Shown: positions 3,918 to 29,802, numbered from the stretch's first letter. The stretch: 64,000 nt of DNA from Pseudomonadota bacterium (GCA_021323865.1 JAJPKF010000020.1:257673-321672), one strand, 5' to 3'. The notes: generated by a model not told the origin, from the sequence alone. Translations and numbers: made by a program.

Positions 3918-4127
3918 AAGTCCCGCCGCAGCTGGGTGGCGGATATCCCCTGGTTGCTACAATGCGTGACAGAACACCGACGGGAGCGTTCCCATGGCAA
4001 CTGGCTTCCTGCAGGCCCCCGTTCCGGCGGTACTCGCCTAAGACCCAGATGATGCCCGCGCCTTCCTAGAAGGCGGTCTCGCGCCTTGAGGCGCTGAGCG
4101 GCGGATTCGGCTTGATCGGTCACCTGG

Positions 4128-15424: not shown

Positions 15425-15786
15425 TGGCTAATGAGCCTCTTGAAGTAACGGTTCGCCGGCTCCCGGCCCTGACGGTTCTGGACCTCGAGGGAGAGATCAA
15501 CGGCTTGGCCGAGTCACGACTCAATCACGCTTACGCAGACGCGGAGGGTGCAGGGCCACGGACCGTATTGCTCAATTTTTCGGGCGTGGACTATATCAAC
15601 AGTACCGGCATCGCCCTGATCGTCAGCCTGCTCGGACGCGCACGAGCGAGTGGTCGCGAGCTGCGCGCCTGTGGCCTCAGCGAGCACTATGTCGAGATTT
15701 TCAACATCACCCGGCTGGCCGACTTCATGTCCGTGTTTCCGAATGAGGAAGCAGCAGTCAGTGAGGCTGCTCTGGGCGCCGGATAG
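15424..15786 (+). CDS. STAS-domain anti-sigma-factor antagonist (SpoIIAA/RsbV-like)
   Basis: LTVLDLEGEINGLAESRLNHAY...VLLNFSGVDYINSTGIALIVSL...RELRACGLSEHYVEIFNITRL is the STAS fold with its phosphorylatable Ser/Thr region. ATGA overlap with the upstream gene. Confidence 0.8.
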   Translation: MANEPLEVTVRRLPALTVLDLEGEINGLAESRLNHAYADAEGAGPRTVLLNFSGVDYINSTGIALIVSLLGRARASGRELRACGLSEHYVEIFNITRLADFMSVFPNEEAAVSEAALGAG

Positions 15787-15848: not shown

Positions 15849-16193
15849 ATGGACCAAACACAGACGTTCGGCGTCCGGGCAACTGAGGGTGCAGCGGTCA
15901 TCGACATCACCGGCGAACTCAATGCCTCGAGCGACCCCGCACTTTCCGATGCCTATGCCCAGGCGTCCGAGCTGAGCGGGCTGATCCTCCTCAACTTCGC
16001 GGGTCTCGAGTACATGAATAGCTCGGGCATTGGCCTCCTCGTTACGCTGCTCATTCGGGCCAATCGGCAGAAGAAGCGCCTCGCGATCTGCGGCCTGTCT
16101 GACCACTACCGGCATATCTTCCAGATCACGAAGCTCGACGATGCGATGAAGATCTATGAAACCGAAGCGGACGCGTTAGGGAGCGATCGATAG
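15849..16193 (+). CDS. Second STAS-domain anti-sigma-factor antagonist
   Basis: AAVIDITGELNASSD...LILLNFAGLEYMNSSGIGLLVTL...KRLAICGLSDHYRHIFQITKL; paralog of 15424-15786. Confidence 0.8.
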   Translation: MDQTQTFGVRATEGAAVIDITGELNASSDPALSDAYAQASELSGLILLNFAGLEYMNSSGIGLLVTLLIRANRQKKRLAICGLSDHYRHIFQITKLDDAMKIYETEADALGSDR

Positions 16194-16236: not shown

Positions 16237-17013
16237 ATGACCGAAAGCCGAGAGCAAAGAGCCTCGCAGATACCTCGTGACGCGGCCAACTGGGCGACAC
16301 AAACTGATGCCGTCAGGCTGTCGGCGGTCCCAACCGGGGCCCGGAATCTCAACGTAGAAGGGAAGCAGGCAGTCGGTCCACTTCAGGGCTTCGGACCAAT
16401 GTGGCAAAAGACCTACCGTGTCCGTCTCCAGGGAAGCGACGCCACGCCCAAGGATGTCATCGCGGCCTGGAAGGAGAACTTCCCCAAATTCTGGCCGCCG
16501 GGCAACACGTTCTATGCGCCGCTCACCGGCATTGCTCCAGGAGAGGCGGCCTTGATCAACTCCTCACTGCCTGGAGGAATGCCGCTCTCGACGGGGGTGA
16601 TGGTGCTCTACGCGGACGATGAGTCATTCACCCTGATGACCACCCAGGGCCATCCCTTCTCCGGTTGGGTGACCTTCAGCGCGACCGTCGAGTCGGAGGG
16701 AGGTATGACGTGCACCGTGGCCCAAGCGCAGGTGCTGATGCGCGCCAATGACCCACTTTATGCGGTTGGCATGCGGTTCGGCGGCCATAAGCAAGAGGAC
16801 CGCATCTGGGAGTGGACGCTGGCCTCCGTAGCGAAGCACTTCGGCGTCGAAGCGCAGGTCGACACCAATTGCCAGTGTGTCGACCGGAGGCCCCAGTGGA
16901 GGCGGGCGGGAAACATCTGGTACAACGCCGGAATTCGGTCGGGCATGTACGTGATGACGACGCCCGTGCGCTTCGTCGCGCGGCCATTCTCCCGTCCTCG
17001 CACGGGCGCATAG
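16237..17013 (+). CDS. Hypothetical soluble protein (no family recognised)
   Basis: 258-codon ORF with coding-like codon usage and a GGAGGATAACC RBS-like sequence upstream. No motif I can name. Confidence 0.5.
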   Translation: MTESREQRASQIPRDAANWATQTDAVRLSAVPTGARNLNVEGKQAVGPLQGFGPMWQKTYRVRLQGSDATPKDVIAAWKENFPKFWPPGNTFYAPLTGIAPGEAALINSSLPGGMPLSTGVMVLYADDESFTLMTTQGHPFSGWVTFSATVESEGGMTCTVAQAQVLMRANDPLYAVGMRFGGHKQEDRIWEWTLASVAKHFGVEAQVDTNCQCVDRRPQWRRAGNIWYNAGIRSGMYVMTTPVRFVARPFSRPRTGA

Positions 17014-17339: not shown

Positions 17340-18536
17340 ATGATGGTCAAACCGGCAAACAGGCCACGTCTCTGGGTGCCGGTCTGGTTCATCACTGCCG
17401 CCACCGGAACCGCCGTCTGGATCGCAGGCCCGATCGTGGAGTGGACGCGTCTGCAGACCGTTTGTCACCATGAGTCTCGCTGCTTGAACACGCAGCTCAA
17501 CGTCATGGCCGCGCGGACCCTCACGCAGCACCACGTCTCGCTCGTGGACTACGCGTTGGGTTCGTTCGCCATGCTGGCCCTTCTCTGGGTCCTCTGGTAC
17601 GGGCTTGCGGCCCTCCTGGTGTTCAAACGTCCCGAGGACAGGGGCGCACTGCTGGCGGCCTTCTTCTTGGTCATCTTTCCGATGTGGGAGTACAGCGATC
17701 TCGTGCCCTGGTGGGGATGGCTCGGAGGAGTCTTCGTGGGAGTGCTGCTGCTCTTCGCCCTGATCTTCCCAGACGGGAGATTTCAGCCGCCCTGGACCAA
17801 GTGGCTTGCCGTCGCAGTAGCGTTGTTCTTCGGCCTCAACTTTCTGTCATCGCTCTCCTTCCTGAATGGGCCTCTGGGACTGGTCATGTTCGTTGGTCTG
17901 GTTGCGCTGGTGGTCGTCGCCCAGGTGCACCGGTTTCGGACCGTGTCGTCCTGGTCCGAGCGTCAGAGAACGAAGTGGGCCGTGTTGGGTCTGACAGCGG
18001 CCGTTGCCGGGGTGATGACCACCTGGCTCCTCGGCTCAATCCTGCCAATCCCAACCGGATCCGGCTCGATCTTCAGCGCTGTCGACAACCAGGTGGGCAC
18101 CGCTATGGTGATGTCGGTCATCCCAGTCTCGATGGCCGTGGCCGTCCTCCGGAACCGATTGTGGGACATTGACCGAGTCATGAGTCGGGCTCTGGCCTAT
18201 GCCGTCCTGACAGCCGTGGTCATCGGCGTCTACGTCGGGAGCGTGGTCGGGCTTCAGTCTCTCTTGGCGCTCTTCGCTCACAACGGCTCGCCCGTCGCCA
18301 TCGGGCTCTCGACTCTCGCCATCGTCGCCCTGTTTGGCCCGCTGCACAGGCGGATCCAGCGCACCGTCGAGCGAAGGTTCTACCGGGCCCGCTACGACGC
18401 GGCTCGTACGGTGGCTGCTTTCGGGGAGCGCCTTCGAGACCAAGTTGATCTTGAACAGCTTAGTCACGGCCTGACCGGTGTTGTCCGGGACACTCTTCAT
18501 CCCGAGCATGTGTCGCTTTGGCTGCGCCAGACGTGA
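17340..18536 (+). CDS. Paralog P1 of the seven-member array of ~10-TM membrane proteins (conserved C-x5-C ectoloop; C-terminal RRFYRARYDAARTV...HPEHVSLWLR tail)
   Basis: GGAGG then ATG. TM1, then TVCHHESRCLNTQLNV, then ~9 more hydrophobic helices with conserved loops RPEDRGA, FPDGRFQPPWTKW, HRFRTVSSWSERQRTKWA, LRNRLWDIDRV, then the tail. Followed by hairpins. Confidence 0.8.
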   Translation: MMVKPANRPRLWVPVWFITAATGTAVWIAGPIVEWTRLQTVCHHESRCLNTQLNVMAARTLTQHHVSLVDYALGSFAMLALLWVLWYGLAALLVFKRPEDRGALLAAFFLVIFPMWEYSDLVPWWGWLGGVFVGVLLLFALIFPDGRFQPPWTKWLAVAVALFFGLNFLSSLSFLNGPLGLVMFVGLVALVVVAQVHRFRTVSSWSERQRTKWAVLGLTAAVAGVMTTWLLGSILPIPTGSGSIFSAVDNQVGTAMVMSVIPVSMAVAVLRNRLWDIDRVMSRALAYAVLTAVVIGVYVGSVVGLQSLLALFAHNGSPVAIGLSTLAIVALFGPLHRRIQRTVERRFYRARYDAARTVAAFGERLRDQVDLEQLSHGLTGVVRDTLHPEHVSLWLRQT

Positions 18537-18546
18537 CAAGGATGAC

Positions 18547-18588
18547 GGGCTGGCGAAAACGTTTCCCAGCCCCCGCCACTTGGGAAAC
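18547..18588 (+). terminator. Two overlapping, mutually exclusive GC-rich hairpins in the P1-P2 spacer (terminator/attenuator-like); a 12-bp palindrome GGCGCCGGCGCC follows at 18628-18639
   Basis: gggctgg(18547-53)/ccagccc(18566-72) and gtttccca(18561-68)/tgggaaac(18581-88) share nucleotides, so only one can form. This is the only sizeable spacer inside the array besides the P4-P5 gap. Confidence 0.3.
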
Positions 18589-18678
18589 GGTCGCCGCGGA
18601 CATTTTGGGCGTGTGGACCGACCCCTTCGGCGCCGGCGCCTTTTGGCCTGAGCAGTTCTCTCCCTTGATCCGTACCCG

Positions 18679-19923
18679 ATGAGCACTCGGAGCGTATCGA
18701 CTGCTGACCTGTCGCCGCGGACGGCTCGAATCGCCCAGATTGTGTGCCTTGTGTTGATCGCCGGAGGGGTCGCCCTGCTCGTGGCTGCCCTCGTCTGGAT
18801 GTGGCCTGGCATGGTCCACCCATGCGCACGGCTTACGACGTGTCAGCAATACCAGCTTGACTCGGCATCGGCCCAATTCCTGAGCCGGCACGACATCAGC
18901 CTCAGCGCTTATGCAACCGGCCTTGCCTTCCTCCTGATCCTCACCACGCTCGTATGGTACGCGCTGGCGGCTTTGATCCTCTGGAAGCGGCCCGGAGACC
19001 GGGGCGCAATCGTGGCGGCCTTTTTCCTTGCCCTGTTTCCTCAGCTCCCGCTTGGCACAATTACCAACTGGGATGCTGGAGCCGACGCCTCTATTGGGCT
19101 GGTAGCGCTGATCATCTTCGGTCTCCTGTTTCCGGACGGTCACTTCAAGCCCCGATGGACCCGGTGGTGGGCACTCGGGGTCTTCGTCATGCTTGTGGCC
19201 ATTTCATTTACTCCAGGTTCCAGCAGCGGGAACGGGAACTTCCTGTGGGTCGTCCCCGTCCTTGTGCTTCCCGCCGCCGTGGTCGGGACGCAGATTTACC
19301 GGTATCGCAAGTTGTCGACGTGGTCTGAGCGTCAACGCTCGAAGTGGGCGTTCTTCGGCATTATTTCAGGGATTCTGGGTATCATCCTCGTCTTTGTTAC
19401 CGGCACGATCACCCAGCCTTCGACCACGGCCGGAATGGGCGGCGGCGACCTGTCGGGACTCTGGGTCAGCGCCGGAATCGTTATCTTTCCGCTCGCCATT
19501 CCCGTCTCGATCACCATCGCGCTGCTTCGGAGCAACCTATGGGACATTGACCACATCATCAGTCGGGCTCTGGCCTACGCCGTCTTGAGCGCGGTCATCG
19601 TGGGGGCGTACATCGGTGGCGTTGTCGGCCTCCAGTCCCTCTTCGCGCTGTTCGCCCACAACGGCTCGCCGGCGGCCATCGCCCTATCGACGCTCGCAAT
19701 CGTGGCACTCTTCGGCCCAATGCTCAGACGCATCCAGCGCATTGTGGACCGAAGGTTCTATCGGAGCCGGTATGACGCCGCCCGCACGGTTGCCACCTTC
19801 GGCGAGCGGCTGCGTGACCAGGTCGATCTGGGCCAGCTTTCCTCCGGCTTGACCGCCGTTGTCCATGAGGCCCTTCATCCGGAGCATGTATCGTTGTGGC
19901 TCCGAGAGATGAGGGAAGGGTGA
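18679..19923 (+). CDS. Paralog P2 of the membrane-protein array
   Basis: CARLTTCQQYQLDSASAQFL..., RPGDRGA, FPDGHFKPRWTRW, YRYRKLSTWSERQRSKWA, LRSNLWDIDHIISRALAYAVLSAVIVGAYIGGVVGLQSLFALFAHNGSP, DRRFYRSRYDAARTVATFGERLRDQVDLGQLSSGLTAVVHEALHPEHVSLWLREMREG. Confidence 0.8.
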   Translation: MSTRSVSTADLSPRTARIAQIVCLVLIAGGVALLVAALVWMWPGMVHPCARLTTCQQYQLDSASAQFLSRHDISLSAYATGLAFLLILTTLVWYALAALILWKRPGDRGAIVAAFFLALFPQLPLGTITNWDAGADASIGLVALIIFGLLFPDGHFKPRWTRWWALGVFVMLVAISFTPGSSSGNGNFLWVVPVLVLPAAVVGTQIYRYRKLSTWSERQRSKWAFFGIISGILGIILVFVTGTITQPSTTAGMGGGDLSGLWVSAGIVIFPLAIPVSITIALLRSNLWDIDHIISRALAYAVLSAVIVGAYIGGVVGLQSLFALFAHNGSPAAIALSTLAIVALFGPMLRRIQRIVDRRFYRSRYDAARTVATFGERLRDQVDLGQLSSGLTAVVHEALHPEHVSLWLREMREG

Positions 19924-21113
19924 CGGACAGGCAGAAGATATTCGCACTCCGCGCCGTCTGGTCCGCGGTCGCCATCGGGGTTTCAGTCGTCTGGGCTCAA
20001 GCCTTCACCGCCGGCATCGGCCGACTAATGTCGGTGTGTCATGTCGCCTCCGCATGCTCGAGCTATCAGCTCGATGGCCCGGCGTCCCGTGTGCTTACGG
20101 ACCATGGCATCCCGCTCGCCCTCTATGCCGGCATCACGGCTGTAGTCACAGTCGGAGCCTGGCTGGTCTGGTTTGGGCTGGGGGTCCTGCTGGTCTGGAG
20201 GAGACCGCGGGATCGCGGAGCCTACATCTCGGCGCTGTTCCTTGCCGTCTTTCCCCTGATGTTCGCGTCGCTTTGGGCGGCGACGACGGCGCAAACGAAG
20301 CTCTTCTCCGGAATCGCCATCTTCTCGCTGATTCCACTCCTGCTGCTGTTTCCGAACGGCCGGTTCGTCCCGCGCTGGACCTGGGTATTCCTCACCTTCG
20401 TTTCGATCCTGGTGGCCTACGGTCAACTGACGAGGGGGCACTTGTTGCACAAGGCCCTCGGCCCGTTCGGAGCCGTCATTGTCCTCCTGATTGCGATGGG
20501 CCTGCAGATTCATCGATTTCGCTCCATATCATCGTGGCGGGAGCGCCAGCAGACGAAGTGGGCCACACTGGGGCTCTGTGCCTGCGTCATCGGCTTCGCC
20601 GCGACGCTGCTGCCCATACTCATCGGCAAGGTCGCTACGAATTCGCTCTACTCAGACTTCGTCGACATCCTTCTCGCCCTCACCACATCGGCCATTCCCA
20701 TCACCTTAGCGATCGCCGTCCTGAGGAGCGGGCTCTGGGACGTTGACCACATCATCAGTCGGGCTCTGGCCTACGCCGTCTTGAGCGCGGTCATCGTGGG
20801 GGCGTACATCGGTGGCGTTGTCGGCCTCCAGTCCCTCTTCGCGTTATTCGTGCACAATGGCTCTCCGCCGGCGATCGCCCTGTCGACACTCGCCATCGTC
20901 GCTTCGTTTGGTCCACTCCGGAGACGGATCCAGCACGTCGTTGACCGGCGCTTCTACCGAAGCCGGTACGATGCCTCGCTCACATTGGCCGCCTTCGGCA
21001 AGCGGCTTCGGGATCAGGTCGATCTCGGAGAGCTCTCTCATGACCTGACGGGTGTTGTTCACGAGACCCTGCACCCTGAGCACGTTTCGCTGCGGCTGCG
21101 AGCTCCAGGATGA
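19920..21113 (+). CDS. Paralog P3 of the membrane-protein array (GTG start overlapping the P2 stop, GTGA)
   Basis: VTDRQKIFALRAV...SVCHVASACSSYQLDGPASRVL..., RPRDRGA, FPNGRFVPRWTW, HRFRSISSWRERQQTKWA, LRSGLWDVDHIISRALAYAVLSAVIVGAYIGGVVGLQSLFALFVHNGSP, DRRFYRSRYDASLTLAAFGKRLRDQVDLGELSHDLTGVVHETLHPEHVSLRLR. Confidence 0.8.
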   Translation: MTDRQKIFALRAVWSAVAIGVSVVWAQAFTAGIGRLMSVCHVASACSSYQLDGPASRVLTDHGIPLALYAGITAVVTVGAWLVWFGLGVLLVWRRPRDRGAYISALFLAVFPLMFASLWAATTAQTKLFSGIAIFSLIPLLLLFPNGRFVPRWTWVFLTFVSILVAYGQLTRGHLLHKALGPFGAVIVLLIAMGLQIHRFRSISSWRERQQTKWATLGLCACVIGFAATLLPILIGKVATNSLYSDFVDILLALTTSAIPITLAIAVLRSGLWDVDHIISRALAYAVLSAVIVGAYIGGVVGLQSLFALFVHNGSPPAIALSTLAIVASFGPLRRRIQHVVDRRFYRSRYDASLTLAAFGKRLRDQVDLGELSHDLTGVVHETLHPEHVSLRLRAPG

Positions 21114-22282
21114 GAGCGACAGTCGAAGCTGTCTTGCGCCGGCACTCGCGGCTGCTGGCCCGGTTGGTATGGGTCGCACTGACCGCGATCGTTCTAGCCG
21201 TCTTCGTCTCGCAAATTCCGGAGGAGTGGAGCTCCCTCGCGACCGTCTGCCGCGGAGCGGCTGCCTGTGCGAATCGGGGCGGTCTCGACGCGTCGGCGGC
21301 TCACACCCTCATCCGACACGGCATTTCCCTACCGGTCTTTGCGTCGCTCATCGTCATGTTCTCGACCACCGTGCTCGCGATATGGGTCCTCCTGGGTGGC
21401 CTCATCGTGTGGCTCAAGCCCGACGATCGAGGAGCCCTGGTCGCTGCTTACTTTCTGGCCGTCTTTCCCCTGTTGCTCGATTCACAGATCCCGCTCGCCG
21501 TCACCTTCACGGCCCTGATTCTCTTTGGCCTGCTGTTTCCTGACGGACACTTCCAGCCTGGGTGGGCGAGATGGCTGGCTGCGGCCGCGCTTGTCGGCGC
21601 CGCCGCTTCCCCATTTGCCGGTGCCCCCGCCGGCATCGCTTCTCTGGTCCTGCTTCTGGCAGCGATCCCGCTCCAAATCTACCGCTTTCGGAAGGTGTCG
21701 ACCTGGGAGCAACGCCAGCAAACCAAGTGGGCCGTCTTCGGGCTAACCGCGACCGTGCTCGGCTTCATTGTGCTGCTGCCGATCTTCAAATTCGGAGCCG
21801 GCTCCCTGGGCGGCGTACTTCTCCAGAACCTCGGCTTCATTACCGTTATCACGATAATGCCGGTCTCCATGGCCCTGTCCGTGCTTCGGAACCGCCTGTG
21901 GGATATCGACCGGATCATCAGCCGCGCCCTGGGCTATGCCCTCCTGAGCGCGGTCACCGTGGGCGCATACGTCGGAGGTGTCGTCGGCTTCCAGTCACTC
22001 TTTGGGCTGTTCGCTCACGACGGCTCCCCTGTTGCCATTGCCCTGTCCACCCTGGCAATTGTGGCGCTGTTTGGCCCCCTGCGCAGACGCATCCAGCAAA
22101 TTGTCGATCGACGGTTCTATCGAAGTAGATACGATGCGTCCCGCACACTCGCCACTTTCGGCGAGCGGCTGCGTGACCAGGTCGATCTGGGCCAGCTTTC
22201 CTCCGGCTTGACCGCCGTCGTCCATGAGGCCCTTCATCCGGAGCATGTATCGTTGTGGCTCCGAGAGATGAGGGAAGGGTGA
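21110..22282 (+). CDS. Paralog P4 of the membrane-protein array (ATGA overlap with P3)
   Basis: TVCRGAAACANRGGLDASAAHTL, KPDDRGA, FPDGHFQPGWARW, YRFRKVSTWEQRQQTKWA, LRNRLWDIDRIISRALGYALLSAV, DRRFYRSRYDASRTLATFGERLRDQVDLGQLSSGLTAVVHEALHPEHVSLWLREMREG (3' end nearly identical to P2 at DNA level). Confidence 0.8.
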   Translation: MRATVEAVLRRHSRLLARLVWVALTAIVLAVFVSQIPEEWSSLATVCRGAAACANRGGLDASAAHTLIRHGISLPVFASLIVMFSTTVLAIWVLLGGLIVWLKPDDRGALVAAYFLAVFPLLLDSQIPLAVTFTALILFGLLFPDGHFQPGWARWLAAAALVGAAASPFAGAPAGIASLVLLLAAIPLQIYRFRKVSTWEQRQQTKWAVFGLTATVLGFIVLLPIFKFGAGSLGGVLLQNLGFITVITIMPVSMALSVLRNRLWDIDRIISRALGYALLSAVTVGAYVGGVVGFQSLFGLFAHDGSPVAIALSTLAIVALFGPLRRRIQQIVDRRFYRSRYDASRTLATFGERLRDQVDLGQLSSGLTAVVHEALHPEHVSLWLREMREG

Positions 22283-22411
22283 CGGACACGCAAAAGATAT
22301 TCGCACGCCGTGCCGAGCACCTACATGGGGAACTGGACAACGACCGGCTGTCCAAGGAGCTCTGGTCTGGGCCTTGCACCCCGCGTCAGTCTCCATCACG
22401 TTGAGGGAGCC

Positions 22412-23650
22412 ATGAGGCCTGTCCGACTAGACGCAAGGAGGAGCCGCTTCCGAGGAGTGCGTCACGAGCGGGCGGTGCAGGCACTGTGGCTTGCGATGGC
22501 GCTGTTCGGCAGCGCTCTGTGGGCTGGCATTCCAATCTCTCAGTGGGGCCGCCTACTGCGCGTGTGCCGGCCCGTCTCAACCTGTGCCCAGTTTCAGCTC
22601 GACGCAGCCTCCGCTGGCCTCCTCCAGCAGCGCGGGGTCTCGCTCGACGATTACGCGATGTTTACGGGCATCGTTCTCGCCACAGGCTGGACGATCTGGT
22701 ACGGCATGTCGGCGCTCGTCATCTATCGCAAGCCCGGGGAGCGGGCAGCGTTGATATCCGCCTTCTTTCTCTTGGTCATGCCCCTGGCAGCCGTCGCCCT
22801 CTGGGTTTCGTGGGGGCTGCTTCTAGCCCTGGCCTCTCTCGCGGCGCTGAACCTCTTTGGCCTCCTGTTCCCCGACGGACGATTCTCACCCCGTTGGACC
22901 CGCTGGCTGGGGATAGGCGTGGTGGCGGCATGCGGTTTCTTGGCGATTCCGGTCTTCGCCAACTCGTCGTTTTATTGGGTCATCCCGCTTTTCGTCGTTC
23001 CGCTTCTCATAGCCGCGCTTCAGATCTATCGGTTCCGCGCCATTTCCTCGTGGCGTGAGCGTCAGCGTAGCAAGTGGGTCTTTCTGGGCCTCGGGACCGG
23101 TCTGGCGGCTTTCCTTTCCATCATCGTCACCCTGAATTTCGTTGGGGCCGGTAATAGTAGCAACGGCACCTTGGGCGGTGGCACGCTGGCGGGTGCACTG
23201 GTAACTCCCGTGTTTGTAATCGGCATCGGCCCGGTGCCGCTTTCAATAGGCATTGCGATTTTGCGCAGCGGCCTCTGGGACATAGATAGGGTGGTTAGTC
23301 GCGCACTGGGGTACTCAGTGTTGACCGTGATCCTCGGGGCTATCTACATCGGCGGAGTGATTGGCCTCCAGGGACTGATCGGCTTGATCGCCGGAAACGG
23401 CTCAGCCGCGGCCGTCGTACTGTCGACGCTAGTGGTGGCCGCTCTCTTTGGCCCACTCCGTCGCCGCCTCCAGAATCTTATCGATAGCCGCTTTTACAGG
23501 TCCCAGTATGACGCCGCGCGAATGGTCAGGAGCTTTGCCGAGCAACTACGGGACGAAGTAGACGTAGACCGGCTCTCAACCGACTTGTCCTCGATCGTGC
23601 GCCAGGCCCTCCATCCTTCACACGTCTCGCTTTGGCTTAGGGAGCAATGA
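22412..23650 (+). CDS. Paralog P5 of the membrane-protein array (ATG at 22412 after GAGGGAGCC; the ORF-track start at 22310 is probably too early)
   Basis: RVCRPVSTCAQFQLDAASAGLL, KPGERAA, FPDGRFSPRWTRW, YRFRAISSWRERQRSKWV, LRSGLWDIDRVVSRALGYSVLTV, DSRFYRSQYDAARMVRSFAEQLRDEVDVDRLSTDLSSIVRQALHPSHVSLWLREQ. Confidence 0.75.
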   Translation: MRPVRLDARRSRFRGVRHERAVQALWLAMALFGSALWAGIPISQWGRLLRVCRPVSTCAQFQLDAASAGLLQQRGVSLDDYAMFTGIVLATGWTIWYGMSALVIYRKPGERAALISAFFLLVMPLAAVALWVSWGLLLALASLAALNLFGLLFPDGRFSPRWTRWLGIGVVAACGFLAIPVFANSSFYWVIPLFVVPLLIAALQIYRFRAISSWRERQRSKWVFLGLGTGLAAFLSIIVTLNFVGAGNSSNGTLGGGTLAGALVTPVFVIGIGPVPLSIGIAILRSGLWDIDRVVSRALGYSVLTVILGAIYIGGVIGLQGLIGLIAGNGSAAAVVLSTLVVAALFGPLRRRLQNLIDSRFYRSQYDAARMVRSFAEQLRDEVDVDRLSTDLSSIVRQALHPSHVSLWLREQ

Positions 23651-24846
23651 CATACATCGTCTCGGAGCAGCGCTGGAGACAGGTCGCCTGGCTACTCCTC
23701 GCGCTTTGGGGCGCGGTATTGTGGCTCGCGGGCCCTGCCTCACAGTCGCTGAGAATCCGGTCGATTTGTCGCCCTCTCTCCTGTAGCTCCTATCAGCTGG
23801 GTGCGCCGGCCGCCTCGACGCTCTCCGGCCACGGCATATCCCTCACGGCCTATGCCGTCTTCACTGTCCTCGTCCTGGGCTTCTTATCCGTCGTCTGGTA
23901 TGGCCTGGCCGGACTCATCATCCTGCGCGAGCCGGACAACCGGGGGGCGGTCATGGCCGCCTTCTTCCTCGTCGCCTTCCCGCTCTTGGAGGTCGCGACC
24001 TGGATCCCAAGCGCACCGTCAGGGCTGAAGAGCCTATTACCGGCGACCGGCGTCGCGGTGCTCCTGCTCTTCTGTCTCCTGTTCCCGGATGGCACCTTCG
24101 CTCCCGGTTGGGCCCGATGGCTCGTGCCTTTGGCTCTGGCGGGAGGTCTCTCGGCCTATCTGCCTCTGCTCCCGCGAGGCGTCGTCCTGGCCATCGCGCT
24201 GGCGTCGGTGGTGGCTGCCCAGGTTGCTCGCTTCCGGACGATATCATCCTCGGCTCAGCGTCAGCAGACCAAGTGGGCGCTCTATGGTGTGATCGCGGCC
24301 GCCGTTGCCTTCGCCACGCTGGCGGCGGGATTCCTGGTCGTGCCTGCCGCTCAGACCGGACCCGGCGGACTATACCGAAGCTTCGCGAACAGCACCGGTC
24401 TCGCCCTGGCAGCGTCCCCAATTCCCATAAGCACCGGCATCGCCATCTTGCGCTACCACCTGTGGGACATCGACCGCGTCGTCAGCCTCACCCTCGGCTA
24501 TGCGCTCCTGACGGCGATGTTGGCGGGTCTTTACATCGCCGGCGTCATCCTCCTGGAACAGCTCGTCCAGGTCTTCACGCCCAGTGGCTCTGACGCCCCC
24601 ATTGCGCTGTCGACGCTTACGGTCGTGGCCCTGTTTGGACCGCTGCGGCGCCGAATCCAGACGGGTATTGACCGGTACTTCTATCGTGCGAAGTACGATG
24701 CCGCGCGCACCTTGGCGGCCTTCGGCGACCGGCTTCGACGTGAAGTCGATTTGGATGCCGTGAGCCGCGACCTCACCGGCGTGGTCGAAGAAGCGCTCAG
24801 GCCCGAGCGAGTAACGCTCTGGGTGCGCACCGAGGCAAAGTCGTGA
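23647..24846 (+). CDS. Paralog P6 of the membrane-protein array (ATGA overlap with P5)
   Basis: SICRPLSCSSYQLGAPAASTL (C-x4-C variant), EPDNRGA, FPDGTFAPGWARW, ARFRTISSSAQRQQTKWA, LRYHLWDIDRVVSLTLGYALLTA, DRYFYRAKYDAARTLAAFGDRLRREVDLDAVSRDLTGVVEEALRPERVTLWVR. Confidence 0.75.
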   Translation: MTYIVSEQRWRQVAWLLLALWGAVLWLAGPASQSLRIRSICRPLSCSSYQLGAPAASTLSGHGISLTAYAVFTVLVLGFLSVVWYGLAGLIILREPDNRGAVMAAFFLVAFPLLEVATWIPSAPSGLKSLLPATGVAVLLLFCLLFPDGTFAPGWARWLVPLALAGGLSAYLPLLPRGVVLAIALASVVAAQVARFRTISSSAQRQQTKWALYGVIAAAVAFATLAAGFLVVPAAQTGPGGLYRSFANSTGLALAASPIPISTGIAILRYHLWDIDRVVSLTLGYALLTAMLAGLYIAGVILLEQLVQVFTPSGSDAPIALSTLTVVALFGPLRRRIQTGIDRYFYRAKYDAARTLAAFGDRLRREVDLDAVSRDLTGVVEEALRPERVTLWVRTEAKS

Positions 24847-26111
24847 GTCGCCGTTCCAGTTTCCTTTGGGCTCGTCGCGGAGAGGTCGCTGGCGTGAGTA
24901 GCGGGAACGGGGCCTCGGGACGCATGTTTGGCCGGGAGACGGAGCTCGGCATCAGAGTGGCCTGGGCGCTGGTGGCGAGCGCCGTTACCATCACCTGGGC
25001 AGTGGCCGTGGCGGCTCAATGGAAATCGCTGACCTCGGTATGTCATCGAGCATCCAGCTGCACGAACTTCCAGATGGACGAGGCCACCGCCCATCTGTTG
25101 GCCGCCCACGGCATTCAGCCGGAAGTGTACGGGGTGTACACCGCTCTGGGGCTGGCACTGGTGTGGGCGGTATGGTGTGGACTTGGTGGACTGATCGTCT
25201 GGCGGCGCCCGCGAGAGGTGGGAGCCGTGGTATCCGCCTTCTTCATGGTCCTCTTCCCGCTGTTCGAGATCAGCTTTTGGTTTCCCAGCGGCAACGGCTC
25301 CCAGCTCATGGGAGCCGTTGCGTTCCTGGCGTTAACCATGTTCTACCTGCTCTTCCCCAATGGCAGCTTCGCCCCACGCTGGTTTCGCTTCGTCCCCATC
25401 GCCCTCATTCCTTTAGGGCTGATTTCCAACTTCCTGCCATGGCTCCTCGGGCCGATGCTCCTCGTGTTTTTCCTCAGTGTTTCTGGCAGTCAGATTTATC
25501 GCTTCCGCATGGTGTCCTCTTGGAAAGAGCGACAGCAGACCAAGTGGACAGTGGCCGGCCTGTTGGTTTCCATACTGCTGTTTGTCGCCGTGGCGGTGGT
25601 CCCATTCAGCGTGGATCCAAAGGTTGGGTATTCAGGCACCGGATATGAGGTGCTCACCATCACCCTGGTGCCGATTGTCACGACGCTCATTCCGCTCTCC
25701 GTGGGGGCGGCCATCTTTCGCAGCGGCCTTTGGGATATCGACCGCATCATCAACCGCGCTCTCGTTTACGGCGTCCTCAGCATCGCGCTGGCCGTCGCCT
25801 ATGTGGGCGGCGTTCTGGGGCTCGAGGCGCTGTTCAGACTCTTCATACGGGGCAGCGCGGCGCCAGCGATCGTCGTTTCGACGCTCGCCATTGCCGCCCT
25901 CTTCGGGCCGCTTCGACGGCGAATTCAGGATGCCATCGACCGGCGCTTCTATCGAGCCAGATACGACACCGCCCGAATCCTTTCCGCCTTCGGTGACCGG
26001 CTTCGGCAGGAGGTGGACCTGATGAATCTCACGCAGGACATGACCTCGGTAGTACAGGAGACGCTGCGTCCAGAGCACGTGTCGATTTGGCTGAGCGGGG
26101 AGATGTCATGA
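24843..26111 (+). CDS. Paralog P7 of the membrane-protein array (GTGA overlap with P6; an alternative ATG at 24927 is possible)
   Basis: SVCHRASSCTNFQMDEATAHLL, RPREVGA, FPNGSFAPRWFRF, YRFRMVSSWKERQQTKWT, FRSGLWDIDRIINRALVYGVLSIA, DRRFYRARYDTARILSAFGDRLRQEVDLMNLTQDMTSVVQETLRPEHVSIWL. Confidence 0.75.
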   Translation: MSRRSSFLWARRGEVAGVSSGNGASGRMFGRETELGIRVAWALVASAVTITWAVAVAAQWKSLTSVCHRASSCTNFQMDEATAHLLAAHGIQPEVYGVYTALGLALVWAVWCGLGGLIVWRRPREVGAVVSAFFMVLFPLFEISFWFPSGNGSQLMGAVAFLALTMFYLLFPNGSFAPRWFRFVPIALIPLGLISNFLPWLLGPMLLVFFLSVSGSQIYRFRMVSSWKERQQTKWTVAGLLVSILLFVAVAVVPFSVDPKVGYSGTGYEVLTITLVPIVTTLIPLSVGAAIFRSGLWDIDRIINRALVYGVLSIALAVAYVGGVLGLEALFRLFIRGSAAPAIVVSTLAIAALFGPLRRRIQDAIDRRFYRARYDTARILSAFGDRLRQEVDLMNLTQDMTSVVQETLRPEHVSIWLSGEMS

Positions 26112-26226: not shown

Positions 26227-26682
26227 GTGGTACGAGCGTTTCGAGTCGTCTGGGCGTCACTCATCTGGTTGTTTATGATCATGATTCCGATTCAGTTCTA
26301 CCTGGCGGGCCACGGAGCAATGGAAGGAGCACATGCCGCCGACAAAGGGATCAGGCCCATGAAGACTGGGTGGGACCCGCATGCCTCATTCGGTACGATC
26401 ATGCTGCTGGTGTCGCTTCTGGTGCTCCTGGCTGCTCTCCCCGCCCGTCCGACACGCCGGCTTCTGGGCATGAGCGTAGCTCTATTCGTCTTCATGGTCA
26501 TCCAGTTCGTGCTGCCCTTCTTCAACGATTCGGCCGGCACTCGTTGGGTCGCTGCCTTTCACGGCGTCAACGCATTGATCGTTACCGGCCTGGCAATGGG
26601 TCTCATCATCCGGACACGACCCTACTGGCCATTCACGAAGTCCGAGGCTGCAGAGGCGGAGGCCGGCGCTGCCATGACATGA
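26227..26682 (+). CDS. Small integral membrane protein (4 predicted helices), hypothetical
   Basis: AGGAGGAGAACAGGTG Shine-Dalgarno. ASLIWLFMIMIPIQFYLAG; IMLLVSLLVLLAAL; VALFVFMVIQFVLPFF; ALIVTGLAMGLII. Confidence 0.55.
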   Translation: MVRAFRVVWASLIWLFMIMIPIQFYLAGHGAMEGAHAADKGIRPMKTGWDPHASFGTIMLLVSLLVLLAALPARPTRRLLGMSVALFVFMVIQFVLPFFNDSAGTRWVAAFHGVNALIVTGLAMGLIIRTRPYWPFTKSEAAEAEAGAAMT

Positions 26683-26904: not shown

Positions 26905-29802
26905 TCACCATTCGGTTAGCTTCCACACCTCTGGCCTCAGCTCCCCGGACTCCACTCCGATCTCGGCATAAATCGAGACGGCCGCTTTCAGGTGGCCCAT
27001 CGCGTCCTCGCCGTTGCCTAGATCATGTGCCAGATCGGCCAGAAGATTGTGTAAGGCCGCTTCGCGATGCCGGTCTCCGCAGGAGGCGCTGAGATGGAGA
27101 GCTTCGACGGCGAGGCTGCATGAAGTCTCAGCGTCGCCCATTCGTCGTGCCACGAGCGCCAGATTTTGCAGGGAGCGCACCCGCAGCGCCGAATCGTCCA
27201 GTTCACGCGCCAGTTCGAGACTTGCTTGCAGGTGCTTCCTGGCCCTCGCCAGATCACCGACTCCGGCTGCGACGATTCCCACGGTGCCGTTTGCCAGCAC
27301 AGCCGCTCGGCCATCACCGGTTTTCTGGGCCAGATCGAGGGCACGGTGCGCGAGCGGCAGAGCGCGCTTTGCGTCGCCTTGATGGTAAATGGACATGCTC
27401 CAACCCGAATAGATGCCGGCCAGCTCAGATGGACCCAGTTCGGGACCCAGGTCGACAGCCCTCTTGAAGTGCCCTTCGGCGCGCTCATGATCGCCCCATC
27501 GGTCCTGCGCGGCGCCCAGCTTGGACTCCAGCCGGGCATTCGTGCCTCCGTTCACTTCCAGCGCGCTTTCGTATGACAACACCGCAGTCTGGTACTCGCC
27601 AAGCGTAAGCCGGAGATCTCCGATAGATTCCCAGAGGTGGGCCGGGTCCGAATGCCCAAGATCCAATGCTGCACGAAAGTGTTCGATGGCGTCCGCGGCG
27701 GCGAACAGGCTCGCGGATCGCTCGCCGGCCTTGGCGTGCCACAGGGCAGCTTCCGCGTCCGAGCCACCCGCACGATAATGCCGTGCGATTTCGCCCGCGG
27801 AGGCCGACAGCTGCGCAGAGGAGTTCAGTTGTGCGAGTGCGTCGGCCGTACGTCGGTGTAACAGACGAAGCCGCGGAGCACTCGCCGATTCCAGAACGAC
27901 GGATCTCTGCTTGTCGTGGCTAAAGTCGTAGATAACGTCCCCATCCGGTTCAGACGGAGAGCGATCCACCAAACCGCGGCTGACGAGCTCCTCCAGTGCT
28001 CTGATGGTCATCTCCTCGTCGCGTCCTGCCGCCTGTTGCAGGGTCGCGAACTGGAAGGAATGACCGATGACGGCTGCCGTGGTGAGTACCTGCCGGGCCC
28101 CCTCACTCACGCGAGTCACCCGCGAAATCAGAACATCCCGCACGCTCTGGGGGATGGTAGCCAGCTCCCCCTCCGCTAGCTCAGCGAGATACTCACTGAC
28201 AAAGAGGGGAACGCCTTCACTCTCTTCGAAGAGGCGGTCGGGTAGATCGGCCCGGTCAGCCTGCTCTTTGGAAGCAACTGACTGGACGATTTGCCTGATT
28301 TCATTTGACTTAAGACGCCCTGGCCGGACCTCGGTAAGATTTCCCAGACGTCGGGCACTCACGGTTATCTGTCGCAGTGGCTCCGCTGCCGCGGGTTCCT
28401 CCTCTCTCCACGCCAGCGCGACGAGGAGTCTCTGCCGGTCGATCCGCCGGAGGAGGTAGGCAAGCCAGGCCAGTGTCGAGTCGTCAATCCAGTGCAGGTC
28501 GTCAACCATGAGCAGCAGGGGCTTGTCCAGCGCGCACGCCAGGATCGCCGACGTCACGGACTCGAGGAAGCGGGTCTCGGCCGCCAGTCGCTCCATGCGA
28601 TCGCCTTGCGTCCGGATCTCCGGGTCCTCAACGTCCTCGTCCATAGCCACGAGGCGGCCGAGCTCTCTGCGATTGCTGACGGAAAGGGGCGAGGCGACGC
28701 TCGAGTGATGCAACTGCGGCAGGGCCACTCGAAGGAGCTGGATTAGCGGCGCGTACGGCAGATCTGATTCGCCTTCATAACATCGTGCCGCCAGGACTCG
28801 AAATCCGCGCACCCGAGCCCGTTCCTCCAGCTCCTCCAGGAGCCGGGTCTTTCCGATGCCCGCCTCTCCCTTTACGACCACGACATGTGCCGCCTCTGTG
28901 GCATGATCCAGCGCTTTGCTGAGGCGATCGACCTCGGCCGCTCGTCCCGTGAGTGGAAGCCGGCCCGCTGCCGGACTTCTAATGGGACTCGGCCCGACGA
29001 TGGCCGATTCAGGACGAGCGGTACGGCCCTCGCGAATCGCGGCATATAGGGACTCCGTCTCCTCCACTGGTGGGACCGCCAGCTCTTCCTCGAGGATGCG
29101 GAGACATTCGCGATACTGGCGGATCGCCGCGGCACGGTCTCCCTTCTGGGCATAGGTCGACATAAGGAGCCGGTGCGACGACTCGTCGAGTGGGTCAAGG
29201 TCGACGAGTCGCCGTGCCATGGCGATTGCCTGCTCTAGCTCATTCGCAGCGGCGAGCCCTTGGGCGGAGGCACCGAGTGCCCACGCGAGCTCTCGGCGAT
29301 ATGCATCTGTCTGCGTTGTCTGCCAGGCATCGAAGTCTGAGCCCGCGTGTGCTGAGAACCCCGTCAGGAAGTCGCCGCTGTAGGCCGAAATCGCCTCGAG
29401 AAGGAGGCGGACGGACCGCGAACCTGGAGGCAGGGCGCCATCCATGTGTTCCCGAGCGCTTTTCAGCAAGCTTCGAAACAGTACGACGTCGAGAGCCAGG
29501 TGCTCAAGGTCGAGACGGAGCGATTGACTCTCGGTGACGATGGCGGACGAGCCAATCGCGCCTCGAAGCGTGGAGAGCGTTCGACGCAGAGATGACCTGG
29601 CGGAAGCGGCGTCCGCCTCAGGCCAAAGCATAGCCACCAGCTCATACCGAGATCGGGGCTTATCCGAGGCCGCCAGCAGCGCCAGCAGCGCAATCGCCTT
29701 CCGGGTATCGACCTCTACCCGAAAGCCGCCGCGCTCGATTCTGGGAGGGCCGAAGAGCGTCACCGAGATGGCCGGCACTCGATGTGTCCCGCCATCTTGC
29801 AT
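26905..29802 (-). CDS. AfsR/SARP-family large regulator: N-terminal OmpR-like winged-helix + BTAD, central NB-ARC/AAA ATPase, C-terminal TPR repeats
   Basis: N-terminus VTLFGPPRIERGGFRVEVDTRKAIALLALLAASDKPRSRYELVAMLWPEADAASARSSLRRTLSTLR (SARP DNA-binding) with BTAD helices (DFDAWQTTQTDAYRRELAWAL...RLVDLDPLDESSHRLLMSTYAQKGDRAAAIRQYRECLRILEEELAVPP). P-loop VVVKGEAGIGKTRLLEELEE and hhhDDLHWID. C-terminal repeated TPR-like helices (AKAGERSASLFAAADAIEHFRAALDLG...). Confidence 0.85.
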   Translation of the reverse strand: MQDGGTHRVPAISVTLFGPPRIERGGFRVEVDTRKAIALLALLAASDKPRSRYELVAMLWPEADAASARSSLRRTLSTLRGAIGSSAIVTESQSLRLDLEHLALDVVLFRSLLKSAREHMDGALPPGSRSVRLLLEAISAYSGDFLTGFSAHAGSDFDAWQTTQTDAYRRELAWALGASAQGLAAANELEQAIAMARRLVDLDPLDESSHRLLMSTYAQKGDRAAAIRQYRECLRILEEELAVPPVEETESLYAAIREGRTARPESAIVGPSPIRSPAAGRLPLTGRAAEVDRLSKALDHATEAAHVVVVKGEAGIGKTRLLEELEERARVRGFRVLAARCYEGESDLPYAPLIQLLRVALPQLHHSSVASPLSVSNRRELGRLVAMDEDVEDPEIRTQGDRMERLAAETRFLESVTSAILACALDKPLLLMVDDLHWIDDSTLAWLAYLLRRIDRQRLLVALAWREEEPAAAEPLRQITVSARRLGNLTEVRPGRLKSNEIRQIVQSVASKEQADRADLPDRLFEESEGVPLFVSEYLAELAEGELATIPQSVRDVLISRVTRVSEGARQVLTTAAVIGHSFQFATLQQAAGRDEEMTIRALEELVSRGLVDRSPSEPDGDVIYDFSHDKQRSVVLESASAPRLRLLHRRTADALAQLNSSAQLSASAGEIARHYRAGGSDAEAALWHAKAGERSASLFAAADAIEHFRAALDLGHSDPAHLWESIGDLRLTLGEYQTAVLSYESALEVNGGTNARLESKLGAAQDRWGDHERAEGHFKRAVDLGPELGPSELAGIYSGWSMSIYHQGDAKRALPLAHRALDLAQKTGDGRAAVLANGTVGIVAAGVGDLARARKHLQASLELARELDDSALRVRSLQNLALVARRMGDAETSCSLAVEALHLSASCGDRHREAALHNLLADLAHDLGNGEDAMGHLKAAVSIYAEIGVESGELRPEVWKLTEW

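Follow-up and report, generated by a model that had tools for sequence, protein, structure and literature searches.

SpoIIE of Bacillus subtilis and SiaA of Pseudomonas aeruginosa are PP2C phosphatases that are anchored in the membrane and act on STAS-type or SiaC partners, and both are single chains with one input, in which a multi-TM N terminus is followed by a regulatory region and the PP2C domain. In PPM phosphatases, control by an N-terminal sensor domain, such as GAF, is exerted via a coiled-coil linker (PMC12143880). In Mycobacterium tuberculosis, Rv1364c carries a PAS domain, an RsbU-like PP2C, an RsbW-like kinase, and an RsbV-like STAS domain in one chain. In the B. subtilis stressosome, the sensors RsbRA to RsbRD, which feed RsbT and RsbU, are several paralogs whose sensing parts vary and whose docking part is conserved, and all act on one PP2C phosphatase, which starts a partner-switching cascade (PMC12143880).

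The 64-kb stretch of DNA analyzed here (the window) codes for a partner-switching set (PP2C, RsbW-like HATPase_c_2 kinase, and STAS substrates) together with seven paralogous membrane proteins, P1 to P7. These are probably seven sensors that plug into one shared signaling enzyme, as the two-thirds of a GAF domain that they lack are found in a soluble phosphatase/kinase whose gene lies immediately upstream of the array (the partner; 13676 to 15424, plus strand). Like the partner, Rv1364c has a phosphatase and an anti-sigma kinase in one chain, with STAS as the substrate (PMC12143880), and it is also the best solved match of the PP2C region of the partner (PDB 3KE6; 33% identity, E value of 1e-11), with the PP2C fold also matching 5UCG and 6K4E. 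However, Rv1364c is soluble, with a complete PAS domain and a fused STAS domain, while in the window the GAF domain is truncated, the STAS proteins are separate, and the input would come from separate membrane proteins. The paralogs share the logic of RsbRA to RsbRD but not their ancestry, as RsbR is a soluble globin-STAS protein that works in a large complex via the RsbT kinase, whereas the window has 10-TM sensors that would be coupled by completing a split domain. SpoIIE and SiaA have the layout of the fused relatives described below, although we detected no sequence similarity in their TM regions.

The seven-gene array

ORF calling recovered seven consecutive genes on the plus strand between 17340 and 26111, in agreement with the initial annotation. 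They are P1 (17340 to 18536, 398 amino acids [aa], with its tail at about 18348 to 18533), P2 (18679 to 19923, 414 aa), P3 (19896 to 21113, 405 aa, although the product in the public record has 397 aa), P4 (21110 to 22282, 390 aa, the basis of both structure models), P5 (22310 to 23650, 446 aa, with an uncertain start, as the ATG at 22412 is also plausible), P6 (23647 to 24846, 399 aa), and P7 (24843 to 26111, 422 aa). Several of the junctions are 4-nt overlaps (ATGA/GTGA). Aligned end to end, the paralogs are 39 to 51% identical to P1 and share 63 invariant columns, and all seven match the family HMM with E values of 1e-138 to 1e-153 (4e-150 for P1 and 3.6e-153 for P2), so their likeness is not due to chance. 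The motifs described earlier were all found again, namely, C-x5-C (C-x4-C in P6), RPxDRGA, FP(D/N)GxFxPxW, (Y/H)RFRxxSxWxERQxxKW, LRxxLWD(I/V)D, and the tail motif, here in the form RFYRx(R/K/Q)YD...(V/I)(S/T)(L/I)(W/R)(L/V).

Pfam and NCBIfam searches bore out the absence of kinase, GGDEF, transporter, or enzyme domains. None of the paralogs carries a Pfam domain, no transporter or enzyme signature rose above noise in either database, neither has a curated model covering the family, and a search of PDB sequences gave no match even at an E value of 10. Among curated models, similarity was limited to PrsK, the XrtA/PEP-CTERM histidine kinase (TIGR02916), whose profile positions 137 to 348 match the stretch from the final TM helices through the linker to the GAF start (E value of 1.4e-6 for P4). 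An identity with PrsK was rejected, as the best score, from a local match to profile positions 151 to 348 only, was 27.1 bits against a cutoff of 300 bits, HisKA and HATPase domains are absent, and there is no PEP-CTERM context.

The family had been regarded as lineage specific, which is wrong, as a profile search retrieved 27,507 cluster representatives across Chloroflexota and Actinomycetota. Most members are stand-alone, and thousands share one end position: 195 of 200 complete homologs terminate 0 to 25 aa past the tail, and P1 to P7 stop 0 to 3 aa beyond the end of the HMM. Another genome (locus L002) has orthologs of P6 (84% identity) and P7 (87%) with the same ends.

Topology and conservation

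Hydropathy, the positive-inside rule, and the helices seen in an AlphaFold model of P4 (mean pLDDT of 86, falling to 51 to 66 in the tail), gave about 10 TM helices, with the N terminus inside, the cysteine loop outside, and the tail inside, as had been predicted. The proposed pattern of a variable outside and a constant inside was also seen in 64 homologs, for which conservation was measured as the frequency of the commonest residue per column. Of the four cytoplasmic loops, the short RPxDRGA loop had a frequency of 0.61 and the other three had frequencies of 0.77 to 0.86; the values were 0.57 to 0.85 in the segments of the tail, the best conserved of which was beta1 (0.85), compared with 0.26 to 0.49 in the ectoloops and 0.34 to 0.49 in TM1 to TM8. 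When the paralogs were compared region by region, synonymous sites were saturated throughout (pS of 0.63 to 0.70), while pN was 0.24 in the tail (against a pS of 0.70) and 0.44 to 0.49 in the N-terminal parts, so purifying selection maintains the tail of these old duplicates. The tails of P2 and P4 share a gene-conversion patch (pS of 0.32).

The C-terminal tail and the GAF domain

The conserved tail of ~60 aa, which the initial annotation took for a family signature with no characterized function, is the N-terminal third of a GAF domain (alpha1 and beta1), preceded by a linker helix. This is clearest in fused homologs, in which the tail is followed in one chain by the remainder of the GAF domain and by either a PP2C phosphatase or a HisKA_3 histidine kinase; the best 120 family hits include about 35 TM-GAF-SpoIIE proteins and about 16 TM-GAF-HisKA_3 kinases. 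In P0188 (816 aa), for example, the TM module is followed by a Pfam GAF match (profile positions 1 to 133) that starts inside the tail and then by SpoIIE. Fused proteins such as P0188, P0385, and P0465 have the ~10-TM module, the loop motifs, the linker helix, and alpha1-beta1 in common with the paralogs, and the hallmarks of the fused family (FPDGxFxPRW, YRYRxxSxxxRQQTKW, LRxRLWDID, and the linker RRRIQxxIDRRFYRxxYDA) are present in P1 to P7. NCBI names P0385 a "GAF domain-containing SpoIIE family protein phosphatase." We know of no characterized member among the TM-GAF-SpoIIE and TM-GAF-HisKA_3 proteins of Chloroflexota or Actinomycetota. The cytoplasmic loops are conserved to the same degree in the fused proteins and so belong to the transduction core of the module itself and do not serve docking in the split form alone.

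The window departs from these homologs in that the chain ends just after beta1, with the remainder of the GAF domain, the PP2C domain, and the RsbW-like kinase on a separate protein, and in that the input module is present as seven diverged copies. A complete GAF domain with an effector (PP2C or HisKA_3/HATPase_c) in the same polypeptide is absent from all seven, and because they end past beta1 without any Pfam domain, we consider them a split variant and not ordinary members of the TM-GAF-effector group. The paralogs correspond to the N-terminal half of a recognizable sensor architecture (TM-GAF-PP2C or TM-GAF-histidine kinase), which is a mild form of the outcome that the initial annotation had named as its refutation; as this architecture is a signaling one, the reading as a sensor module is supported.

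The two proteins complement each other along the GAF profile. A full GAF fold (about 130 to 150 residues) is found in one chain neither in the paralogs nor in the partner. Alone, the tail had no match to Pfam GAF (PF01590), and the partner matched it only at profile positions 35/52 to 130 (32.2 bits for 52 to 130). When tail and partner were joined, all six tails tested spanned positions 1 to 130 with 35.7 to 39.3 bits (cutoff of 22.4), a modest gain of 3.5 to 7 bits. Solved GAF domains align only to positions 50 to 150 of a profile built from alpha1 to alpha5 of the fused proteins. P4 joined to the partner is collinear with 33 fused TM-GAF-PP2C proteins (38 to 49% identity), the partner aligning from just past beta1 onward and the junction falling in a variable loop of the fused proteins, right after VSLWLR. 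The VSLWL residues, a low-confidence helix in the model of P4 alone (pLDDT of 51 to 56), form a beta strand (380 to 384) in a single-chain model of P4 plus partner, in which alpha1 has a pLDDT of about 82 and a 50-residue helix (468 to 518) lies in the position of the coiled-coil linker; as this covalent fusion was built on the alignment of the fused homologs, the model is not an independent test.

The soluble partner and its neighborhood

The partner consists of a short basic amphipathic N-terminal motif, a Pro/Ala-rich linker, the truncated GAF domain, a long linker helix, a PP2C domain of the SpoIIE/RsbU type (Pfam SpoIIE, E value of 2.7e-55), and an RsbW-like kinase (HATPase_c_2, 2.9e-21), and it has no TM module of its own. 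The public record places its start at 13760; we favor 13676, as the stretch ahead of the GAF remainder is of constant length among homologs, with about 33 residues in most of 119. No tail-like sequence was found in 20 partner orthologs even at maximum sensitivity (best score of 4 bits). The conserved amphipathic motif might stabilize the truncated GAF domain unaided, which counts against a need for completion by another protein. A further point against such a circuit is that, with Pfam covering some of the ORFs of the window, the cluster yielded no sigma factor or other output.

Downstream on the same strand follow an RsbV-like anti-anti-sigma factor (STAS protein 1, 15424 to 15786; Pfam STAS, 3.4e-14), the presumed substrate of the phosphatase/kinase, a second STAS protein (15849 to 16193; 3.4e-16), and a conserved 258-aa protein (16237 to 17013) of no assigned function, with only a weak Pfam match to DUF1990 (E value of 0.006, below the cutoff). 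The same layout is found at the locus of the fused P0394, a protein that has HATPase_c_2 as well and whose gene precedes a STAS gene and a gene for a 283-aa protein without Pfam hits.

In about 20 other genomes, arrays of this kind likewise have the partner, two STAS genes, and the 258-aa gene next to them. The partner was found in 20 of the 81 family loci; it lies immediately after a family gene in 12 of them (gaps of -91 to +125 nt), and 5 have it ahead of the family genes, as in the window. STAS genes are present in 19 loci (18 besides the window), as a pair in all but one, and 17 of the 18 others have the two side by side; the 258-aa gene also occurs in 19 loci (18 besides the window), next to the STAS genes and sometimes duplicated.

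Fused homologs, gene neighborhood, and GAF profile complementarity point in the same direction as the earlier suggestion that the tail serves a common cytoplasmic partner. We consider it somewhat likely that a sensor phosphatase has been split within its GAF domain and that P1 to P7 serve as its alternative input modules in the membrane, each completing the GAF domain of one effector in trans. The tail of a paralog would insert its beta1/alpha1 into the incomplete GAF domain of the soluble protein, rebuilding the fused architecture and tethering the effector to the membrane. A conformational change in the TM module could then be relayed by the GAF domain and the linker helix and so determine PP2C activity, which the phosphorylation state of the STAS protein would follow, as in partner switching. 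With seven paralogs and one conserved tail, different signals might converge on, or compete for, a single effector, and the parts that diverge among the paralogs are those facing outward or embedded in the membrane.

The distribution of the family does not fit completion in trans everywhere. Of 24 loci with 6 kb or more of flanking sequence on each side, only 6 have the partner, and some orphans are closely related to a fused sensor (66 to 71% identity), both of which count against it. Also, stand-alone copies at L085 and L088 adjoin complete fused sensors that have their own alpha1-beta1 and would be better explained if truncated paralogs were modulators that pair with fused TM-GAF-effector sensors, or with each other, and tune or poison dimeric signaling. 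The pairing surface would then be the TM domains plus the linker and alpha1 helices, and no split GAF domain would be completed. PPM sensors do work as dimers via helical linkers (PMC12143880), an eight-copy array adjoins the fused TM-GAF-PP2C protein P0401, and the gene of the orphan P0418 converges on that of a fused TM-GAF-HisKA_3 kinase. These copies, and the many orphans without a nearby partner, keep such heteromerization alive, and yet we regard it as unlikely for the window, where the family HMM found no fused member, only the seven stand-alone copies, and where the one cognate effector has neither a TM module nor alpha1-beta1. It also leaves unexplained the precise split point and why the best conserved element of the tail is beta1, a strand of the sheet, and not a dimer helix.

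Orphans and stand-alone members, the lack of an effector domain and of a family model, and the strongly conserved cytoplasmic loops would also be expected of autonomous membrane proteins (transporters, enzymes, or structural proteins) that have only ancestry in common with sensor N termini, with the tail as a self-contained cytoplasmic element, such as a homo-oligomerization hairpin. We find this improbable, as searches of Pfam, NCBIfam, and PDB turned up no sign of a transporter or enzyme, fused sensors show conservation of these loops too, the tail is recognizably GAF alpha1-beta1 and is poorly ordered alone in the model, and about 20 genomes repeat the association in operons with PP2C and STAS genes. 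Finally, although the short gaps to a downstream partner in 12 loci could in principle permit read-through or frameshifting, it is very improbable that the paralogs are fragments of a broken sensor gene (a pseudogene or an assembly or frameshift error) or are joined to a partner by programmed read-through, given the common end position of thousands of members, seven intact copies, saturated pS with low pN in the tail, and the orthologs of P6 and P7, and read-through cannot join the genes of the window, in which the partner lies upstream of the array.

Returning to completion in trans, two candidates had been put forward as partner of the tail, and the evidence singles out the GAF-PP2C-kinase protein. 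The other, an AfsR/SARP-like regulator with BTAD, AAA_16, and TPR domains in Pfam (26905 to 29802, minus strand), is a recurrent convergent neighbor, although nothing ties it to the tail. Its homologs are found in 13 other loci, also next to one orphan and one fused member. It is the only recurrent regulator nearby and is possibly part of the circuit.

A sensor phosphatase apparently divided within its GAF domain

The seven plus-strand paralogs P1 to P7 (17340-26111) end in a common tail, which the initial annotation treated as a family signature with no assigned identity. Fused homologs, in which the membrane module, a GAF domain and either a PP2C or a HisKA_3 kinase form one chain, identify this tail as alpha1-beta1 of a GAF domain. 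In P0188, a fused homolog of 816 aa, the TM module is followed by a match to the Pfam GAF profile (profile positions 1-133) that starts within the tail, and then by a SpoIIE-type PP2C. Past "...YVSLWLR", P0188 shows clear homology to a soluble protein of 582 aa that the window encodes at 13676-15424 on the plus strand (here called the partner). In the partner, Pfam recognizes GAF profile positions 35-130 only, together with SpoIIE (2.7e-55) and HATPase_c_2 (2.9e-21) domains. Among the top 120 proteins in a search with P0188, about 35 have the TM-GAF-PP2C arrangement and about 16 are TM-GAF-HisKA_3-HATPase_c kinases, and interleaved among them are stand-alone modules 66-71% identical to its N-terminal half. 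A join of P4 and the partner is collinear with 33 fused proteins (38-49% identity), the junction falling in a variable loop of these proteins directly after beta1. This collinearity means that the window encodes the two halves of a sensor phosphatase as separate genes, with the break inside the GAF domain. The closest solved relative of the partner is the RsbU-RsbW portion of Mycobacterium tuberculosis Rv1364c.

Starting from its annotated start, the partner matches the Pfam GAF profile only at positions 52-130 (32.2 bits). Addition of the last 62 residues of P1, P2, P3, P5, P6 or P7 extended the match to positions 1-130 in all six cases (35.7-39.3 bits), while the tail by itself gave no Pfam GAF match. 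A profile of the fused proteins from alpha1 to alpha5 matches solved GAF domains (Ta0848, PDE, and DevS) at positions 50-150 only, and its numbering runs collinearly with that of complete GAF chains 150 residues long. Two structure models seem to point the same way. When P4 is modeled alone with AlphaFold, the tail is a helical stretch of low confidence (pLDDT, 51-66). When it is modeled with the partner, with the chains covalently joined and an alignment taken from fused homologs, alpha1 (360-375) reaches a pLDDT of about 82 and VSLWL (380-384) takes the form of a beta strand. Apart from this one, the strands of the small domain are limited to a hairpin of the partner (441-446, 452-457) plus a bridge of two residues; a 50-residue helix leads into the PP2C domain.

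Ahead of the GAF remainder, most of 119 partner homologs have a lead of constant length (30-38 residues; median, 33), in which a basic amphipathic motif precedes a Pro/Ala-rich linker (homologs P0264-P0322; 13676-13790 in the window). The motif, phi-W-x-x-phi-phi-x-R-R, is conserved (for instance, TLWRTVRRRR and NFWQVFVRRR in homologs and RLPIFRKRAG in the window) and has the periodicity of a helix, not of a strand. We considered that the partner N terminus might hide an alpha1-beta1 of its own and rejected this, because of that helical periodicity and because HMMER, with every filter disabled, found no tail-like sequence in any of 20 partner orthologs (best score, 4 bits). One possible role for the lead motif is that of a helix docking on the membrane or on a sensor. 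The public record begins the partner gene at M29 (13760), and since such a start would drop the conserved motif, the true start is probably 13676.

Conservation and topology of the array

An ORF check of the window recovered all seven plus-strand genes at the positions first proposed, as well as every motif described for them, including the C-x5-C ectoloop (C-x4-C in P6). Aligned to P1, the paralogs are 39-51% identical over the whole length, with 63 invariant columns, and a family HMM matches each of the seven at E values of 1e-138 to 1e-153. Hydropathy and the positive-inside count, together with an AlphaFold model of P4 built from 64 homologs (mean pLDDT, 86), agree with the proposed topology, predicting about 10 TM helices, with the Cys loop outside and the N terminus and tail in the cytoplasm. 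The pattern of a variable outside and a constant inside likewise holds across the 64 homologs, the frequency of the commonest residue being 0.77-0.86 in three of the four cytoplasmic loops, 0.61 in the short RPxDRGA cytoplasmic loop, and 0.57-0.85 in the tail segments, against 0.26-0.49 in the ectoloops and 0.34-0.49 in TM1-8. The extracytoplasmic surface is small, consisting of one loop of ~36 residues with the Cys pair and several short loops; that the sensed signal is membrane embedded or redox is a reasonable guess and nothing more. The bundle may resemble 7TM receptors, at the fold level only. Over the array (18000-26000), AT skew is strongly negative (-0.22 to -0.27) and in most of the remaining window it is about zero, which fits a coding strand whose hydrophobic residues are specified by T-rich codons.

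Family identity and breadth

A scan of all seven paralogs found no Pfam model and no NCBIfam model above cutoff, returning noise and one weak match (E value, 1.4e-6) to the TM-GAF histidine kinase PrsK, local to the final TM helices and the beginning of the GAF of PrsK. A sequence search of the PDB with the paralog profile gave nothing at an E value of 10. With no signature whatever for a transporter or an enzyme, we rejected both readings of P1 to P7.

The family had been taken for a lineage-specific expansion, which proved wrong, as the profile of the seven retrieves 27,507 representatives (50% clustering), from both Chloroflexota and Actinomycetota, and 7,180 of these match at an E value of 1e-30 or better. 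The best matches are nearly all stand-alone proteins of 400-450 aa; where a source is named, as it is for a few of them, it is Chloroflexota, Ktedonobacterales or Anaerolineae. Longer, fused proteins such as P0188 make up a minority of the matches. A genome scan yielded 80 loci from Ktedonobacterales, Chloroflexia, Anaerolineae, Dehalococcoidia, and Rubrobacter and other Actinomycetota. Tandem arrays are common among them, with a maximum of 10-11 copies, and 195 of their 200 complete members stop 0-25 residues past the tail. As arrays and the same end recur across the 80 loci, both are traits of the family and not peculiarities of the window.

Age, selection and gene conversion

Synonymous differences among P1 to P7 are saturated in every region (pS, 0.63-0.70; tail, 0.70), so that the copies must be old. 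Nonsynonymous differences (pN) are 0.23-0.24 in the tail and TM9-10 versus 0.44-0.49 in the N-terminal parts, and because the tail value is half the N-terminal one despite saturated pS, tail conservation is attributable to purifying selection. Recent homogenization is limited to two short patches, in the tails of P2 and P4 (19700-19920 and 22060-22279) and in TM9-10 of P2 and P3 (about 19560-19760 and 20750-20950), where pS drops to 0.32-0.33 from about 0.65 elsewhere, which indicates gene conversion between array members; the C-terminal ...LSSGLTAVVHEALHPEHVSLWLREMREG is identical in P2 and P4. Gene conversion is ruled out as the source of tail conservation, as tail pS is saturated outside these patches, and the excess nucleotide identity in the 3' third of P1 to P4 comes mostly from amino acid constraint. 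A related Chloroflexota MAG (locus L002) has the same flanks as the window and only three array members (3030-6713), two of which are orthologs of P6 (84%) and P7 (87%). It follows that the paralogs are ancient and their copy number dynamic, with a gain or loss of four copies separating these close relatives.

Gene neighborhood of the partner

In the public record of the contig (JGI metagenome 3300005532), the partner, two STAS genes (15424-15786 and 15849-16193), an unannotated 258-aa gene (16237-17013), and the array follow one another on one strand. The partner recurs in 20 of 81 loci. In 12 of these it immediately follows a family gene (gap of -91 to +125 nt), and in 5 it lies upstream, as in the window. 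STAS genes are found in 19 of the 81 loci, as a pair in all but one. The 258-aa gene is equally frequent (19/81), accompanying the PP2C-STAS-STAS cluster at 18 loci besides the window, at some of them as a tandem duplicate; its product has a weak, sub-threshold match to DUF1990 (E value, 0.006). P0394, a fused TM-GAF-PP2C-HATPase_c_2 protein, is followed by a STAS gene and an unannotated 283-aa gene, an arrangement that amounts to the window operon with the split healed.

Proposed mechanism and alternatives

In the best-supported mechanism, which we propose from the documented split architecture, complementarity, operon and selection, P1 to P7 would be alternative input modules, and we infer that their tails dock on the partner. 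Each paralog would supply the alpha1-beta1 that the truncated GAF of the soluble PP2C/RsbW-like protein lacks, which would rebuild the fused architecture in trans and draw the effector to the membrane. Control is inferred to pass from the divergent TM and extracytoplasmic parts to the GAF, from there along the long linker helix, and so to the PP2C, whose activity would determine how far the two STAS proteins are phosphorylated. A route of this kind from sensor to phosphatase has been shown for RsbU, and it has been proposed to apply generally where PPM phosphatases have PAS, GAF, receiver or HAMP inputs (PMC12143880). The earlier idea of a sensor acting on a common partner thus largely stands, given the fused homologs and the operon, once corrected for the identity of the tail and the breadth of the family. 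The full proposal is tentative, its chances lying slightly short of even: a GAF domain naturally split over two polypeptides and restored by fragment complementation, with arrays of up to about 11 interchangeable "plug" (alpha1-beta1) sensors that time-share or compete for one partner-switching output through a single soluble PP2C/RsbW "socket" effector, these sensors being a widespread, unrecognized input class of Chloroflexota and Actinomycetota with >27,000 clusters and no family model.

The main rival is that stand-alone modules heteromerize with full-length fused sensors, as only 6 of the 24 loci that have ample flanks contain the partner, orphan stand-alone members are common, and some stand-alone copies adjoin fused sensors that already own alpha1-beta1. 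In the window, however, the family HMM finds no fused member, and the sole cognate effector has neither a membrane anchor nor alpha1-beta1, so complementation is the better reading there; across the family, the two are not mutually exclusive. Autonomous function of the modules is unlikely, given the lack of any transporter or enzyme signature from Pfam or NCBIfam in P1 to P7. A pseudogene or assembly artifact, also unlikely, was rejected in view of the end shared by 195 of 200 homologs, the selection on the tail, and the P6 and P7 orthologs.

PP2C, RsbW-like kinase, STAS, and GAF domains are known kinds. The membrane module, its mostly stand-alone existence with an end inside the GAF, and its multicopy arrays beside a GAF-truncated effector all appear to be undescribed in the literature and curated family libraries that we searched; a literature search for split GAF domains and for the family in Ktedonobacteria or Chloroflexi returned nothing relevant beyond the general PPM phosphatase mechanism. 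If complementation is true, tens of thousands of "hypothetical" multi-TM proteins, whose tandem arrays are often the largest in the genomes of Chloroflexota and Rubrobacter, would be inputs to PP2C partner switching and perhaps to histidine kinases too, and PP2C proteins annotated as "GAF" would be recognized as incomplete alone. A regulatory domain split within its fold would be a new bacterial coupling principle, in which alternative donors of the missing strand allow many-to-one integration without a stressosome-like scaffold, and synthetic signaling could draw on a split-domain pair that evolved in nature.

Other genes associated with the family

An AfsR/SARP-like BTAD-AAA-TPR regulator lies at 26905-29802 (minus strand) in the window and in 13 other loci (for example, L082, 10044-13838, and L085, 9432-12365), convergent wherever its orientation was inspected. 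It adjoins stand-alone arrays, one orphan member, and one fused TM-GAF-PP2C member, and it may be the transcriptional output of the system or its regulator. A promoter and terminator scan of 13-27 kb was uninformative, the sites not exceeding those in shuffled sequence. Directly downstream of the array is a gene for a small DUF6220 membrane protein (26227-26682); the three-copy array of L002 is followed by the same gene, and in locus L049 a weaker homolog immediately precedes a family gene.

No partner with a GAF remainder and HisKA_3 was found in the 80 loci, which carries little weight as these were chosen by similarity to the window. At locus L088 (2518-5301, minus strand, and 5192-5842), a fused TM-GAF-HisKA_3-HATPase_c member is accompanied by a LuxR-type response regulator, and thus the module is wired to two-component signaling as well as to PP2C partner switching. 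A stand-alone member is convergent with this fused kinase.
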